Virus record (IMG/VR): IMGVR_UViG_3300021086_000014
Span: 1-33,645 of that record
Length of the DNA: 33,645 nt
Strand: one strand, 5' to 3'
DNA from: a virus
Lineage: Duplodnaviria; Caudoviricetes
Of this stretch, positions 3,235 to 31,593 are shown in pieces (positions within the stretch are counted from its first letter, which is position 1; each line of letters starts with the position of its first letter). The translations under genes and the position numbers were made by a program. Under the pieces are notes generated by a model. It was not told where the DNA came from, did no database searches, and saw only the letters and a program-made list of their open reading frames with translations.

Positions 3235-4722
3235 TCAGTGCAGCCACCCGAGCGTCACCCGGCCGGGCGGCAGCCCGCGCGCACCCCGCCCCGCCCGGTG
3301 CACCGTCACGCGCACCACCGCGCGCAGCAGCGCGCGACGCTCCATCAGATCCATCCCCGCCCACGCCTTGCGCGCGCCGGGTCCCGCCGCGCGGCGCAGC
3401 ACCGGCGGCAGCGTCGCCTCCATTGCGCGCTGCCGCGCTGCCTCCACCTGCGGCAACAACTCACCCTCCAAAGCCGCCAGCGACACCGCCGACAGCGCCA
3501 TCCGCCCCGCCGACGTCATCGTGGACGCCAACGTGCGCGCCTCAGCCAACTGCGCCTCGAGCGCATCGGCCTGCGCCAGGGACCGGCGCAGCGCCACGTC
3601 CGCCACGTCCGCCCGCATCGACGACGCGAACGACGGCCGCTCGATCCGCGTGAGCATCGCACGCGTCACATAGCCCTCAAGCAGCTCTGCGCGGATCGTC
3701 GCCCGATAGCAGGTGCGGCAGGTGTACGCGAACGTCCCCTTGATCCGGATCGGACGCATCACCCGGACGTCCTGGGCCAGGGCGTACAGGCACGGGCCGC
3801 ACACGGGCACCCCCGACAGCAGGTGCCGTATCGCCGAATCCTTGTGCGTCAGGCGCGCCGGGTCCGACACCAGCTTCAGGCACGCATAGTAGGTGGGGTC
3901 GTCCAGGATCGGCTCCCACGCCGCGTCCCCGATCACCTCGCCCGCGTGCTGCCGTTTGCCGATGTTCGTCGGCCGGGTCACCAGGTTGCGCACCGTGGTC
4001 AGCGACCAGTTCCCGCCCCGCGGCGAGGGAACACCCCGCCCGTTGAGGTCCTGCACGATCGAGAACAGGCTCTGCCCTGCGGCCACGCGCTGCGCCAACT
4101 CGCGTACGACCACGGCCCTGTCCTCGTCGACCACTTGGCGCTGCAGAGCCCCGGTCAGTGGGTCGTATTCGCGCCGGTAGCCGTAGGGGATGCGCCCGTG
4201 CGGACCGCCGCGCTCGGCGTTCAGGCGCACCGTGCGCAGGTTGCGGTCCCGGATGGCGTCGGCCTCCAGTTCCGCCGTCAGCGCGCCCAGTCCCGTGACG
4301 AACCGGTCCTGTCCGCGCGAGAGGTCGTACACGGTGCCGTTGAGGCACAGCAGCACCCCGCGTTGTTCGCACAGGTCGCGCAGGTCCAGGTAGGCGCGGG
4401 TGCTGCGGTAGGCGCGCGATGCCTCCCAGACCACTAGCACGTCGCATTCCTTGTCGTGGTCCGCAACATCGATACGGCTGATCATCTGCTCGTAGTCGGG
4501 GCGCCCGGTCTTGGCCCACCGGGACGCCGAGTACCCGGGGTCGTCGAACTCGTCGGCCACGCGCCAGCCGCGCGACTCGCAGAAGCGCCGGTTCTCTAAG
4601 CGCTGGTCTTCGACGGACCGGCCGCCGCGGGGGTTCAGGCGCGAGTTGCGGTCGTAGATGAACGCGCGTAGTTCCTGGCCGCCGTCGTGGCGCATGACGG
4701 CGGTGTGCGGTCTGGGGGCCAT
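3235..4722 (-). CDS. int: Large serine recombinase (serine integrase)
   Basis: Catalytic motif AFIYDRNS (YxRxS), DVLVVWEASRAYR, recombinase domain (GRIPYGY...WEPILD), zinc ribbon LLSGVPVCGPC...YTCRTC and coiled coil. Confidence 0.95.
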   Translation of the reverse strand: MAPRPHTAVMRHDGGQELRAFIYDRNSRLNPRGGRSVEDQRLENRRFCESRGWRVADEFDDPGYSASRWAKTGRPDYEQMISRIDVADHDKECDVLVVWEASRAYRSTRAYLDLRDLCEQRGVLLCLNGTVYDLSRGQDRFVTGLGALTAELEADAIRDRNLRTVRLNAERGGPHGRIPYGYRREYDPLTGALQRQVVDEDRAVVVRELAQRVAAGQSLFSIVQDLNGRGVPSPRGGNWSLTTVRNLVTRPTNIGKRQHAGEVIGDAAWEPILDDPTYYACLKLVSDPARLTHKDSAIRHLLSGVPVCGPCLYALAQDVRVMRPIRIKGTFAYTCRTCYRATIRAELLEGYVTRAMLTRIERPSFASSMRADVADVALRRSLAQADALEAQLAEARTLASTMTSAGRMALSAVSLAALEGELLPQVEAARQRAMEATLPPVLRRAAGPGARKAWAGMDLMERRALLRAVVRVTVHRAGRGARGLPPGRVTLGWLH

Positions 4723-17135: not shown

Positions 17136-17749
17136 TTAGCGGTTCTCGCGCTCCGCCTGCGCCTGCTCCCGCTCGATGCGCAGGTCCTGCGCCTCCGCGT
17201 ACGCCTGCGCGACCGGCGGCAACTGCTCGATCAGCCACCACGGCTGCTCGTCCACCACACTGGGGGGCCAGTGGTGCACCTGCGCGAACCACCCGTACGG
17301 CCAGGCCGCATCCTCCAGCGGTGTCGGCGGGTGGTCCCCGGGGATAGGCCTGCCGTCGAACGCCGCTACGAGACGACGGTAGGCGCGGTAGGGGACCCCG
17401 GGTCCGCTACCGCTTGCGCCTGCTCCTGCGGCGTGTCCGGCTGCGCCGAGCCCGGAAACAGCAGCTTCTGCGCCGGGCCCACCAGTTCCGTGAGCCGGTC
17501 GTAGTCGGGGATCTCAAGCATGTCCAGCACGGTGATGTCCTGGGAGGGCAGCGGCAACTGGGTGGGAAGCTGCCAGTTGACCACGAGCATCGCGGTCAGC
17601 CCGTCGGTGATCTCCAGCCCGGCGGACATCACCTTCTGGATGTCGCTGACGGCGCGCAGGACCTTCTTCTTGTCCCCGGACTTCAACTCTTTGGGGTCGC
17701 GCAGTTCGACCCAGGCGCCCTCGGACGCGAGGGCGTGGCGTTCGGACAC
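17136..17749 (-). CDS. Tail assembly chaperone, frameshifted long form (gpGT-like; -1 shift near 17390-17402)
   Basis: The -1 frame is open from the slip region to TAA at 17136 and encodes ...PYRAYRRLVAAFDG...FAQVHHWPPSVVDEQPWW...ERENR. The HWPPS motif is typical of gpT-like parts. Heptamer C CCG GGG (17402-17396) is followed by TCC CCT A. Confidence 0.8.
17366..17749 (-). CDS. Tail assembly chaperone, short form (gpG-like)
   Basis: Follows the major tail gene. 127 aa, acidic and helical. Confidence 0.85.
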   Translation of the reverse strand: MSERHALASEGAWVELRDPKELKSGDKKKVLRAVSDIQKVMSAGLEITDGLTAMLVVNWQLPTQLPLPSQDITVLDMLEIPDYDRLTELVGPAQKLLFPGSAQPDTPQEQAQAVADPGSPTAPTVVS

Positions 17750-27774: not shown

Positions 27775-30700
27775 TCAGGCCGGGTACAGCCAGCAGCGGC
27801 AGCGGGCGTGCTGGGGCGGGGCGTCGACACCGGTCGGCCACGCCGACCCGAGGGGCAGCGGTCCGGCGCCGGCGTTGTCCAGGCACGGGTCGCAGGTGCG
27901 CTCGTCGGCTTCCGCACCCCAGGAGATCTGCGTGGTCCCGGCGCCCCGGTAGGCGTCGAGGGCGGCCTGGGAGGAGGCGCGGGTCAGTTCGGTCAGCGCG
28001 ACGCACTGCGCCCACGACGCGTCGGCGAGCACCGCGGCCAGCGAGGCGGCGAGGCCGGCGGAGTCCTGCCCCTGTCCGCCCGCGAGTGCCTTTGCCAGGG
28101 CGCCGAGCCGCCCGTTCGCGATGGATGCGGCCCACCCGGAGGCCTGCAGCGCCCACCGCTCGAAGCGGTTCCGTTCCTCGGGCGCCAGGGTGGCGCCCGC
28201 GCCGTTCGTGTCGCCCTCGGCCCAGCCCCATGCGCTCACCCGTCCGCGCCCGGCCAGGACCGCGGTGGCGGCCGCGTCGCCGATGGCGTAGCCCTCGAGC
28301 CAGATCAGGCGCAGCAGCGCGAGCGGCTGGGCGAGGGTGATGCCGCGGCGGTGCAGGAGCGCGAGCGCGGCGGTGGCGGCCCACTGTCGCGTGCCTGCGG
28401 CAGTGTCGGGGGTGGTCCAGTAGTCGGAAACGTCGGCCGGGGCGTAGTCGCCGGGGCTGTAGTCGTCCCCGCCGTCTGCGTCGTCGGCTTTGACGAGCTG
28501 CTGGGCGAGCCACGCCTCGGCCAGTGCGCGGGTGTCCAGTGCGCGGGCCATGGCGCGGGTGATGCGCGGCGCCCACAGGTGCGCGGTTTCGAGGTCCCGG
28601 TCCCAGCCCGGCCAGCGGCCGGGCCGGTCACCGGCTTTTGGGGGTGGTTCGCCGCCGCCCGGGGTGGCGAACACGACACGCGCGTCGCCCCACATGTCGT
28701 CGGGCGCGTCGGCCTTGGTCAGGACCTGCGCGTGGAACACGCGGCCGGCCTTGGGCGCCCGCCGGGCCCAGTTGCGGTAGGCGGCGACCTCCGCCTTGGC
28801 CGCCGCGCCCCGGGGCTTCGACGGGGCCGCGCCGGCGGGCGCCTGCCCGTCCTGCCCCTGGTCGTTCTCGAACCGGTCGGGGATCCCGTTCAGGTTGGCG
28901 TCCTTGTTGGGCGGGGCTTCGAGCGGGGAGATGGTTTCCCCCGCCGGCGCCGTCTTGGACGCCCCCTCCAGGAAGATCACACCGCGGCTGGTGGACACGA
29001 TCGGCATGTCCGCCTCCGCGAACGCGTACCGGGGCAGCCCCAAACGGTCGCGGTCCTCGTTGTAGGTCATGCGCGCGGACTTGACCCGGTTCTCGGCCAC
29101 CGCGTCGGCCGCCGCCTCGTCCTCGTCCTCCAGGCCCAGGATCCGGAACTCAAGCTCGGGCGGCATGGCCAGGTGGCGCCGGGAGATCCCGGTGATCAGC
29201 CCCTGGATCCACCGGTAGGTCGGCATGGTCGCGTTGCGGTCCTTGATGTCCGCCTGGCCCTCGTGGTACCCGGTGGAGCCCAGCCCGCCGGCCTCGGTGA
29301 AATTCAGCTCCGCGATCGTCGTGGCGAAGTGGGAGGCGAGCTGTTTGAGCAGGAACAGGTCGTAGTGCGGCTGGTACTTCTCCGCCACGTCGGGGATCGA
29401 CTCGAGTTCGAACCCGGGGGGCAGGATCCGCATCCGGTGGCGCTCGAGGGTCTGCCCGGACCAGGCGTCGTTCAGCGCGGTCTCGTACTCCAGGACCTGT
29501 TGGGGGGTCCAGGAGTTCAGGGCGGTGTTGCGCAAAAGCCCCGACGGGATGGTGCCGTCGGTGAACTCGGCGCGGATCCAGGCCCTGCGGCGCAGCCACA
29601 CGTCCAGGTCTTCGAGGCACTGCTCGACCGCGCTGAAGCCGTAGAGGGTTTCGGTGCGCACGTTGCGGCGCTTGTAGATCAGGGTGTCGGGGGCGTACCC
29701 GTTGATGACCCGGCCCTGGTCGTCCACGTCGGCGACGTATTCGCCGCGCGGGAAGCCCCACAGGATCTGCTGGTAGGCGGGGCCCGGCGGCAGGGGCTTG
29801 CCGCCCCGGTAGTCCCGCAACACCTTGATGGTGTTGCCGCACCAGGCCGGCTTGCCGTTACGCCGCACGTACAGCACCTCGTTGGGCACTGAAACACAGA
29901 ACACGTCCCCGTCGTACGGGACCGTGTCGGCGTGCCAGGTGCGGGCGTGGGTGTTCGAGAGCCGGATCGAGTACCGCTCGCGCTTGTTCTGTGCGCGGAT
30001 GACGCGCCCGTCGCGCATCACGGTGTCCTTTGTGAACACATCACGACTGACGTTGGCGCACTTGCCCATCTTCTGGGCGATCTCCTGGAGGTCGTCGGCC
30101 ATACGCGGGCTACACGTGACGACCGTTTCCCGGGCGCCGGAGTAGCACCCGTCGCCGAGCATGTAGAAGCGCCAGAAGATCTCAAGCTGGCGCGCGGACA
30201 TGTTCTTAACGGTGTCAGGGGCGTGCTTCTCGTGCGCTTTCCCGAACTGCGCAAGGTAGGAGTAGAGGCACTTGCGGCTGATGACGAACGACTTGCCGGT
30301 ATGGCATACCTCGCGACCGAAGATCCGTGTGAGCAGGTCACGGAACGGGCCGTACCCCTTCGACGCGGGGTCCTGCGAGATGCAGACGGTGTCCTTCTTC
30401 GCGCTGGTGAAACAGCCCTCGGAGAGGTACGCGCCCATGAAGGCCGCGAAGTCGTCGCCGCTGCACTCGAACGGCAGTGACGTGGTGCGGCCGGAGGCGG
30501 GCAGCTTGAACTCACCCAGGTCGGGTGCGTTCCACCGGGAGGTCATGGGGATCTTCGACGCCTGGCCGTTTCCGTGCTCGGCGAGGGCGGCGGCGGTCAC
30601 GATGGACTCGCCGCGTTCGCGCCAGCTAGATCCCCCGAGTGCCCGCGGCGTGGCCGTGACGAGCATCCGGTGGTTTCCGGTCACGAGAATGTCTAGCGAC

Positions 30701-31593
30701 TTCGATGAGAAGTGGTAGAGATCGCCCTTGTGCGGGGCGCGGTGGAAGTAAGTGGCCTGCTGCCACTCGAACTCGTGCGTCTTGGGATTGCGCGTCGCGA
30801 AGTCGTCGTCCGCGCAAGTGTCCGCGAAGCGCAGCCAGCCGCGCCGCGTCAAAACTTCGGTGTCGTCGGAGTAGCAGGACCCGTCCAATATCTCTAAAGC
30901 GTACAGGTCCCCGCCGTATGTCTTCCTCGGATAGATCGCGACCCCGTCGAGCACCAGGTGCTCCTCGAGGAGTTTGCCGATCCAGTCGGTCCAGTCCTCG
31001 TCCTGCCCGGGGTCGGGACGCTCCCAGAACGCGGAGCAGCGCGCGATCTGCGGCCCGAGGCGTTTGCGCAGGTCGGCTTCGACGTCGGCGCGCGAGGACG
31101 ACGGGCTGTCGGCCTCGGCCTGGGCGACGGCCTGCTTGGTGACGGTGATCGCCCATTCGAGGGTGGTGATCTCGTCCTTGCGGATCTGGATGCAGCGTCG
31201 CGGGATGCCCCCGGCGCTGGCGGCGTCGCGCAGTACCTTCCAGGGCACGAGCCGGTCGGTGACCCCGGGCAGGTTGGTGGAGACGGGGTATTCGGTGAAG
31301 CGGGGTTCGGGGCGGGCGGTGTCGCGGCGTACGGGGTCGATGGCCGCGGGGATCAGGGCGAGGCCGGGGCCGAACGCGACCTGCGGGTCGAGCCTTGGCA
31401 GGGGGTTGAAGCCGCCGTTGGTGGCGGGTGCGTTGTTGACTGCGGCGAGCAGGGCGGCGACCTGGGGGCCGGTGTAGGTGGTGGCGCCGGGTCCGATGCC
31501 GGGGGCGGCGGCCTTGTTCATTTCGGCCTGGGTGGAGCGGCGCACCTGGTAGTGCTGGCCGTTGCGTCGGTTGTTCTTGCTGCGGCGCGACAC
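27775..31593 (-). CDS. Portal protein with intein, fused in frame to a C-terminal MuF (Mu gpF-like minor head) domain
   Basis: Portal motifs LEILDGS|TIK, YGFSAVEQ, FTDGTIPSG, MTYNEDRDRLGL. C-terminal TELTRA...WGAEADERTCDPC...PPQHARCRC is the MuF signature. The start at 31593 (GTG) is approximate; ATG at 31521 is an alternative. Confidence 0.9.
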   Translation of the reverse strand: MSRRSKNNRRNGQHYQVRRSTQAEMNKAAAPGIGPGATTYTGPQVAALLAAVNNAPATNGGFNPLPRLDPQVAFGPGLALIPAAIDPVRRDTARPEPRFTEYPVSTNLPGVTDRLVPWKVLRDAASAGGIPRRCIQIRKDEITTLEWAITVTKQAVAQAEADSPSSSRADVEADLRKRLGPQIARCSAFWERPDPGQDEDWTDWIGKLLEEHLVLDGVAIYPRKTYGGDLYALEILDGSCYSDDTEVLTRRGWLRFADTCADDDFATRNPKTHEFEWQQATYFHRAPHKGDLYHFSSKSLDILVTGNHRMLVTATPRALGGSSWRERGESIVTAAALAEHGNGQASKIPMTSRWNAPDLGEFKLPASGRTTSLPFECSGDDFAAFMGAYLSEGCFTSAKKDTVCISQDPASKGYGPFRDLLTRIFGREVCHTGKSFVISRKCLYSYLAQFGKAHEKHAPDTVKNMSARQLEIFWRFYMLGDGCYSGARETVVTCSPRMADDLQEIAQKMGKCANVSRDVFTKDTVMRDGRVIRAQNKRERYSIRLSNTHARTWHADTVPYDGDVFCVSVPNEVLYVRRNGKPAWCGNTIKVLRDYRGGKPLPPGPAYQQILWGFPRGEYVADVDDQGRVINGYAPDTLIYKRRNVRTETLYGFSAVEQCLEDLDVWLRRRAWIRAEFTDGTIPSGLLRNTALNSWTPQQVLEYETALNDAWSGQTLERHRMRILPPGFELESIPDVAEKYQPHYDLFLLKQLASHFATTIAELNFTEAGGLGSTGYHEGQADIKDRNATMPTYRWIQGLITGISRRHLAMPPELEFRILGLEDEDEAAADAVAENRVKSARMTYNEDRDRLGLPRYAFAEADMPIVSTSRGVIFLEGASKTAPAGETISPLEAPPNKDANLNGIPDRFENDQGQDGQAPAGAAPSKPRGAAAKAEVAAYRNWARRAPKAGRVFHAQVLTKADAPDDMWGDARVVFATPGGGEPPPKAGDRPGRWPGWDRDLETAHLWAPRITRAMARALDTRALAEAWLAQQLVKADDADGGDDYSPGDYAPADVSDYWTTPDTAAGTRQWAATAALALLHRRGITLAQPLALLRLIWLEGYAIGDAAATAVLAGRGRVSAWGWAEGDTNGAGATLAPEERNRFERWALQASGWAASIANGRLGALAKALAGGQGQDSAGLAASLAAVLADASWAQCVALTELTRASSQAALDAYRGAGTTQISWGAEADERTCDPCLDNAGAGPLPLGSAWPTGVDAPPQHARCRCWLYPA
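29833..30876 (-). mobile_element. Intein with LAGLIDADG homing endonuclease in the portal gene (348 aa)
   Basis: Starts CYSDDTEVLTRRGW (block A), VTGNHRM (block B TxxH), FMGAYLSEGC and YMLGDGC (LAGLIDADG blocks), YDGDVFCVSVPNEVLYVRRNGKPAWCGN, followed by +1 Thr. Lower GC3 than the host gene. Confidence 0.95.

Follow-up and report, generated by a model that had tools for sequence, protein, structure and literature searches.

The window analysed here is a stretch of 33,645 nucleotides (nt) of viral DNA (Duplodnaviria; Caudoviricetes; IMG/VR record IMGVR_UViG_3300021086_000014), which carries on its minus strand one gene in which a portal protein is fused to a MuF domain. Judging from sequence comparisons, we consider it very probable that the junction of the two parts is a programmed -1 ribosomal frameshift site of the dnaX type, through which a single mRNA would give both a portal-only protein and a portal-MuF fusion. 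A truncating -1 shift of this sort had been proposed in a first-pass annotation of the window; on comparative grounds it is supported by the slippery heptamer, a near stop codon in the -1 frame, relatives with the reciprocal layout, and relatives in which the heptamer has been swapped for another of the same form.

The slip site and its predicted products

The sequence across the junction is GAA CCA CCC CCA AAA GCC GGT GAC in the 0 frame and CCC AAA AGC CGG TGA in the -1 frame (positions in Table 1). As had been claimed, the heptamer C CCA AAA is present in the phase X XXY YYZ, both of its codons are rare in the gene (CCA encodes three of 81 prolines, AAA six of 42 lysines), and the -1 frame closes with the TGA. 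Among 11 heptamers of the X XXY YYZ type on both strands of the window, CCCAAAA is unique. The chance of so near a -1 stop, estimated by synonymous recoding of this gene alone, is p = 0.035.

The product sizes given by the first-pass annotation, about 640 and 924 amino acids (aa), also hold: with a 348-aa insertion subtracted, and with translation assumed to begin at GTG 31593, the short form is predicted to have 640 aa and the long form 924. A tandem -1 slip would give the short product the C-terminus ...GEPPPKSR. Trypsin would cleave this peptide, which had been proposed as a target in the virion, after its lysine, and AspN or chymotrypsin would be needed instead. The statement that the gene requires two layers of recoding has to be amended, as intein splicing is post-translational; what the gene would need is one recoding event plus protein splicing. 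Positions 28000-30000 were recovered in one contig, with no differences, from a single DNA run which is possibly the source of the window and is not independent of it.

Conservation of the heptamer and of the -1 stop

Homologous loci were collected from IMG/VR (79 from the best 80 of 109 related loci, 80 of 313, and one duplicate from a scan with the linker only), from genomes (at least two with the single protein, and at least six of 401 genomes in an order-wide search), from metagenomes (at least 12 with the single protein) and from two cultured phages; a generic acidic pattern dominated the two single-protein scans. Clustering of the portal cores at 90% identity left 82 representatives, window included. 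In 48 of these the extension lies in the 0 frame and the stop in the -1 frame, as in the window (layout A); in 12 the portal frame ends and the extension is read on in the -1 frame (the reciprocal layout B); in 12, labelled by hand, the next gene is started separately (layout C); and one is fused without the site (layout D). The nine others were not assigned, five being cut by a contig end and four being complete; among the complete ones, L073 has a MuF-like gene that begins at an ATG of its own. The junction rule accepted CCCAAAA, CCCTTTA, CCCTTTT and one A-run only. Three minus-strand loci, examined apart from this set, all have an in-frame heptamer, with the -1 stop at 4, 9 and 9 codons.

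For the analysis of codons we used the 38 representatives with at least 50% core identity, a set chosen by protein first and unbiased in that respect. A junction Pro-Lys is found in 35 of the 38, and in all 35 it is spelled C CCA AAA; the three exceptions are cut by the contig end (L022), start MuF separately (L146) or are fused without Pro-Lys (L085). The C before CCA, fixed in 35/35, ends codons for many amino acids, against a background of 46% of codons ending in C. None of 60 other Pro-Lys pairs in the loci of GC content 0.64 or more is spelled CCA AAA, the background in these loci being CCA for 100 of 1796 prolines and AAA for 87 of 712 lysines. Nor are conserved residues elsewhere spelled in this way: 14 other conserved proline columns have CCA in 0-4 of 31-35 sequences, and AAA is the codon in 2-9 of 30-35 at four conserved lysine columns.

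The -1 stop is likewise closer than expected. It falls within four codons in 19 of the 48 layout A loci, where synonymous recoding predicts 3.3, and within 12 codons in 35, where it predicts 8.8. Where a Gly-Asp or Gly-Glu pair follows just 3' of the site its glycine is always GGT (11/11), which creates the TGA, versus 37/268 elsewhere. Some loci of both layouts have swapped the heptamer for C CCT TTA or C CCT TTT, whereby the amino acids change and the X XXY YYZ form and its phase are kept. These swaps and the codon controls argue that the site is under selection beyond the protein. The homologue comparison proposed earlier as a check therefore came out in favour of the shift, CCCAAAA and a near -1 stop being conserved at the junction and the reciprocal arrangement also existing.

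Reciprocal layouts and changes of polarity

In the 12 layout B representatives the stop codon of the portal comes 6-19 codons past the heptamer, and the open stretch of the -1 frame is 114-606 codons long. Pfam found MuF in the -1 frame of seven of eight tested loci (one of them below the cut-off), which, together with the 19 near stops against 3.3 in layout A, gives the -1 product a recognizable meaning in both layouts. In the eighth (L042) that frame encodes a 131-aa domain, which shares 55% identity with the extension found in the 0 frame of its layout A sister L174. On a FastTree phylogeny of 79 portal cores the polarity changes between A and B at least seven times, and sisters of opposite polarity include L032/L014 (87% core identity), L174/L042 (83%) and L063/L062. 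In our opinion these reciprocal layouts, together with swaps that keep the form and phase of the heptamer, are the strongest argument for a ribosomal -1 shift.

The domain that the site would govern need not be MuF. In L039 (5186-5575), L174 and L042 (4496-4888) the slip site would govern a 130-aa extension with a DGHHR motif, in opposite polarities in the sisters; its match is to ParB-like proteins, and is weak (E 0.22).

Two cultured Arthrobacter phages, Sonali (MK411746, gp3) and Mufasa8 (MN586027, gp3), carry C CCA AAA in phase, and their -1 frame reaches a stop 11 codons later. Their genes (L095:2144-5131 and L096:2134-5136) have a NUDIX-like domain between the portal and the slip site, and since this domain lies 5' of the site the short form would keep it.

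Putative stimulatory elements

Upstream of the heptamer lies an element resembling a Shine-Dalgarno (SD) sequence. Pairing energies were computed against what we take to be the anti-SD motif. Across the 60 heptamer loci, pairing peaks in 9-nt windows ending 5-6 nt before the heptamer, and reaches -8 kcal/mol or lower in 60% of the loci versus 6% of control positions, on that same assumed motif; after clustering at 80% identity the site ranks in the top decile for 22 of the 40 clusters. From the end of the GGxGG core to the heptamer the distance is about 9-11 nt, and the spacing described for an SD which stimulates -1 shifts is 9-14 nt (PMC5009743). In the window the element reads GGCGGCGA rather than GGCGGTGA.

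Downstream, the first-pass annotation had noted GC hairpins. A strong fold is indeed predicted, but the best fold is one 11-bp stem and not two small hairpins. This stem begins 8 nt 3' of the heptamer, and the next 50 nt fold at -34.5 kcal/mol (z -3.9; none of 200 shuffles as stable). The small hairpin GCCGG-TGA-CCGGC was rejected as a stimulator, as it starts at the edge of the heptamer and is absent from the best fold. In the family as a whole the enrichment is specific to position: GC-adjusted folding is more stable than in the rest of the gene solely for windows whose start lies 0-7 nt 3' of the heptamer, with a mean z of about -1.2, and this holds in 34 of the 40 clusters. The window phage, with z of -4.3 to -2.4 at +0 to +7, has one of the most stable folds in the set.

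Proposed mechanism and points against it

We envisage that a ribosome meeting the GC hairpin, 8 nt 3' of the heptamer, would stall while tRNA-Pro is paired with CCA and tRNA-Lys with AAA, and that both tRNAs would re-pair on CCC AAA, aided in most relatives by the SD-like element, which is weak here. The TGA two codons after the slip would then end the chain, giving, after splicing, the 640-aa portal-only protein (...PPPKSR), while unshifted ribosomes would yield the 924-aa portal-MuF fusion. We think it fairly probable that both forms co-assemble in the 12-mer portal ring, so that some subunits only would bear MuF, and that the shift sets the stoichiometry of MuF is plausible. For one or two copies, as in SPP1 gp7, a layout A gene would need more than 80% shifting. 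The frequent flips of polarity are suggestive of a rate close to one half and not of a few percent. According to the review of Atkins and colleagues, a one-base change reverses the polarity where the efficiency is around 50% (PMC5009743), which fits the A/B flips seen among the portal-MuF loci.

It is possible, though we stop short of calling it probable, that portal-MuF frameshifting is a widespread and unannotated head-assembly switch. It would operate near one half and give rings of mixed composition, in which some subunits bear MuF or another cargo domain and others lack it, its polarity would be flipped by single-base changes, and the SD-like sequence would alternate between serving the start of MuF and serving the shift. 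The split gene, the plain fusion and the two polarities would then be four interconvertible ways of dosing MuF.

Several observations weigh against a programmed shift, or against its importance. Shared ancestry inflates the counts given above, the 60 heptamer sites forming 40 clusters at 80% identity. In nine of the 48 layout A loci the -1 stop is 36-54 codons off. The SD-like element of the window phage ranks at only the 17th percentile. With synonymous recoding as the control the 3' structure is modestly supported in 34 close loci (p = 0.018) but does not reach significance in the 14 distant loci or the 12 reciprocal ones, and the window's own hairpin has a z of -0.95. RNAalifold found no single consensus hairpin in 16 aligned close loci, because the length of the linker varies; I read this as hairpins having been locally re-evolved, many with the WPGW codons as the 3' arm. 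The reciprocal loci L014, L042 and L176, which are nested among layout A loci, are represented by one contig each. Single-contig errors are an unlikely explanation of all the B loci, since random errors would not all fall just 3' of the heptamer, and the other layout B groups are supported by several contigs. Lastly, one lineage (L028, L029, L085) is fused without Pro-Lys and without the heptamer, and 12 representatives initiate the next gene separately; the existence of these layouts C and D means that the shift is dispensable in some lineages and is not needed family-wide. The three loci of the fused lineage have a further extension of more than 500 aa beyond MuF.

Alternative explanations

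Transcriptional slippage, for which Thermus dnaX is a precedent, seems improbable. Here a polymerase which added or dropped a base at the C or A runs would make an altered mRNA encoding the short form and would thereby yield the same pair of products. Among the reciprocal relatives one (L061) does have nine A in a row, and slippage is known for runs of that length (PMC5009743), but in the window and in most relatives the run is just four long. Moreover the conservation follows the codon phase, up to the invariant C before CCA, and slippage of the polymerase needs no SD-like or hairpin signals at ribosome-type spacing.

Slightly less probable again is that no shift occurs at all, and that the rare codons and hairpin cause a folding pause at a domain border or that Pro-Lys is a cleavage or binding motif. 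The location of the site at such a border in a model of the homologue P0003 would suit this, as would the occurrence of Pro-Lys no more than 14 residues before a W.GW motif in 118 of 119 motif-bearing proteins (of 121), and here also its position after a PPP run. Three features are then left unexplained, namely the selection for a -1 stop (19 versus 3.3), the start-less MuF in the -1 frame of the reciprocal loci, and the Pro-Leu and Pro-Phe variants which keep the heptamer form.

We assign the same low probability to a switch that is real in the family and vestigial, or too weak to matter, in the window phage. The departure of its SD-like element from GGCGGTGA, with a pairing energy of -6.8 kcal/mol, and the existence of a fused lineage without the site speak for such decay; the exact heptamer, the -1 stop at codon 4 and the very stable downstream fold, which have all been kept, speak against it.

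Least likely of all is that the SD-like element is the ribosome-binding site of a separate MuF start: relatives without the heptamer do use AAGGCGRGTG-ATG at this position, with MuF in the +1 frame, and heptamer-bearing kin have nearly the same upstream letters (L146 versus L176 and L170), but an internal start was rejected because 51 of the 60 heptamer loci, the window included, have no ATG, GTG or TTG in the MuF frame from three codons before the site to about ten after it, and both CCA AAA and the -1 stop would be left unexplained. With the ribosomal -1 shift as the preferred reading, the shared letters suggest one SD with two uses, initiation of MuF in some relatives and stimulation of the shift in others.

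Own starts of MuF (ATG or GTG, +1 frame) were seen in L034, L037, L038, L040, L052, L146, L157, L164, L166 and L177; in the nine loci with a listed start MuF begins about 100-110 nt inside the portal gene. Several of their N-termini, MPGGE...(W/F)PG, resemble the linker GGGEPPPK...WPG of the putative frameshift loci. Outside the junction count, the portal tails of the own-start loci L035, L037, L038, L166 and L177 contain GGGTTTC/T, GGGAAAA or T7-type heptamers. In L037, L166 and L177 an in-phase GGGTTTC/T, with a -1 stop 2-5 codons on, lies in an extra C-terminal domain of the portal tail; these may be a second switch, or Gly-Phe codons that fit the pattern by chance.

Comparison with known systems

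In Escherichia coli dnaX (tau/gamma) a -1 shift two-thirds into the gene leads to a near-immediate stop and loss of the C-terminal domain; it is stimulated by a 5' SD at 9-14 nt and a 3' stem-loop, and in some bacteria the polarity is reversed (PMC5009743). The portal-MuF site resembles it in its predicted truncating -1 shift, in a predicted 3' stem-loop and in the reversal of polarity elsewhere, and most relatives have an SD-like element 5' of the site, which is weak in the window. Unlike dnaX, in which A AAA AAG affects a replisome subunit, it uses C CCA AAA (Pro-Lys) and would affect the portal of the virion.

Among phages, Lactobacillus phage A2 has -1 frameshifts in its major head and tail genes, and CCCAAAA is found in the head gene of the A2-related phage BH1 (PMC5009743, PMC6950654), that is, the same heptamer in a structural gene. 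The A2 shift extends the capsid and tail proteins by an Ig-like part, whereas in the window it would remove MuF from the product of a portal gene. Phage A2 itself reportedly uses CCCAAAA.

The conserved -1 shift of the tail assembly chaperones G/GT sets the ratio of short to extended protein (PMC4493119), and portal-MuF would similarly give a short and an extended morphogenesis protein from one -1 site. However, G/GT are non-virion chaperones with extension as the sole polarity, while portal-MuF occurs in both polarities and its products are predicted to be parts of the virion.

Portal-MuF fusions of actinobacteriophages have been described (PMC7302621), and gp7 of SPP1, of the MuF family, binds the portal and is present in 1-2 copies per capsid (PMC5576092); both papers treat the fusion as a plain in-frame gene. 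The window gene shares with them the fusion of these domains, muf lying directly downstream of portal. "Frameshift" occurs nowhere in the main text of PMC5576092 and, in PMC7302621, for tail chaperones only; "portal" and "MuF" do not occur in the 300,000 characters searched of the 2016 review (PMC5009743), nor "portal" in the main text of PRFect. The supplement of PRFect reportedly lists MuF-like genes among its predictions, which may bear on novelty. No portal-MuF frameshift was found in the literature searched, which mostly did not cover subscription journals and included PMC10885494, PMC11375127, PMC6950654 and PMC4493119. Within that literature the portal-MuF junction appears to be new as a candidate recoding site; the dnaX-type mechanism is known.

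Portals are regarded as 12-membered rings of identical subunits, and annotations give a portal-MuF fusion as one protein. Should the site work, a single gene would encode two forms of portal in many phages and prophages of the actinobacterial type. Certain "separate" muf genes would then be mis-annotated, having no genuine start, and the portal gene would join the few phage structural genes in which programmed frameshifts are known. The site would also bear on how the dose of MuF, a domain of poorly understood function, and of the domains that come with it is set at the portal vertex. The cultured soil phages Sonali and Mufasa8 make the claim testable.

The portal-intein-MuF gene and other features of the window

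Both domains lie in one open reading frame (ORF), with Pfam matches to Phage_portal (E 7.9e-7, under the curated cut-off) and Phage_Mu_F (PF04233, E 1.5e-7); the portal also matches PHROG 2662 (E 3e-42). The N-termini of homologues, and GAGGGGGT upstream, favour GTG 31593 as the start. The portal C-extein, spacer and small helical domain would all be retained in the short product.

Table 1. Features of the portal-MuF locus, in window coordinates
Feature	Position	Strand	Basis or remark
Portal-intein-MuF gene	27775..31593	-	1272 aa, 0 frame; Pfam Phage_portal and Phage_Mu_F, PHROG 2662
Portal N-extein, 239 aa	30877..31593	-	PHROG 2662 profile positions 22-156
Intein-like insertion, 348 aa	29833..30876	-	Cys first, Asn last, Thr at +1; ends read from sequence
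Portal C-extein, low-complexity spacer and small helical domain	28643..29832	-	Pfam portal; model of homologue P0003
SD-like element GGGCGGCGGCGAA	28648..28660	-	Weak here: -6.8 kcal/mol, 17th percentile within gene
Slippery heptamer C CCA AAA (Pro985-Lys986)	28636..28642	-	Read from sequence; in codon phase
-1 frame stop TGA, made by GGT GAC	28628..28630	-	Sequence; synonymous-recoding p = 0.035
Predicted 3' stimulatory hairpin	28597..28634	-	11-bp stem 28627-28603 and 5-bp lower stem 28634-28630/28601-28597
MuF part, WPGW motif to stop	27775..28614	-	Pfam MuF about 28098-27790; high-confidence domain in P0003 model

An AlphaFold2 model was made of P0003, a homologue without the insertion (65 sequences; mean predicted local distance difference test score, pLDDT, 71.6; predicted template modelling score 0.40). 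As the portal core is largely poorly modelled, only the domain border was used. Pro-Lys 619-620 lies within a low-confidence linker (615-620) between two folded parts, the small domain, which with helix 563-581 precedes the linker, and the MuF domain, mostly of pLDDT above 90 with the exception of one loop. Since the slip site is in this interdomain linker, the shift would be predicted to delete the MuF domain whole.

The insertion has the terminal residues of an intein (Cys first, Asn last, and at +1 a residue of the set Ser/Thr/Cys) and is absent from homologues, whose consensus runs LEILDGS-TIK. It gave no sequence match in Pfam, NCBIfam or PDB, the Hint/intein profiles included, and both its ends match PHROG enzyme families weakly. 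YLSEG and MLGDG are presumably two LAGLIDADG-like motifs; as the intein call depends on motifs that we assume to be diagnostic, we have kept the label intein-like. The insertion may represent a divergent intein subfamily.

A likely tail assembly chaperone pair lies at 17749-17136 (minus strand). At C CCT ACC near 17393, in a 127-aa ORF ending ...SPTAPTVVS, the -1 frame opens for 85 codons, which makes a second candidate -1 shift at a non-standard site. The pair has no Pfam match; a HWPP motif in the 85-codon frame is, we assume, typical of gpT-like parts.

The record also has serine recombinase, tape-measure and prohead-protease matches and derives from a soil phage. The large serine recombinase (Resolvase and Recombinase domains; 3235-4722, minus strand) points to a temperate phage, and as the named protein relatives are mostly prophage genes of Streptomyces and Actinocrinis, its host is presumably actinobacterial.

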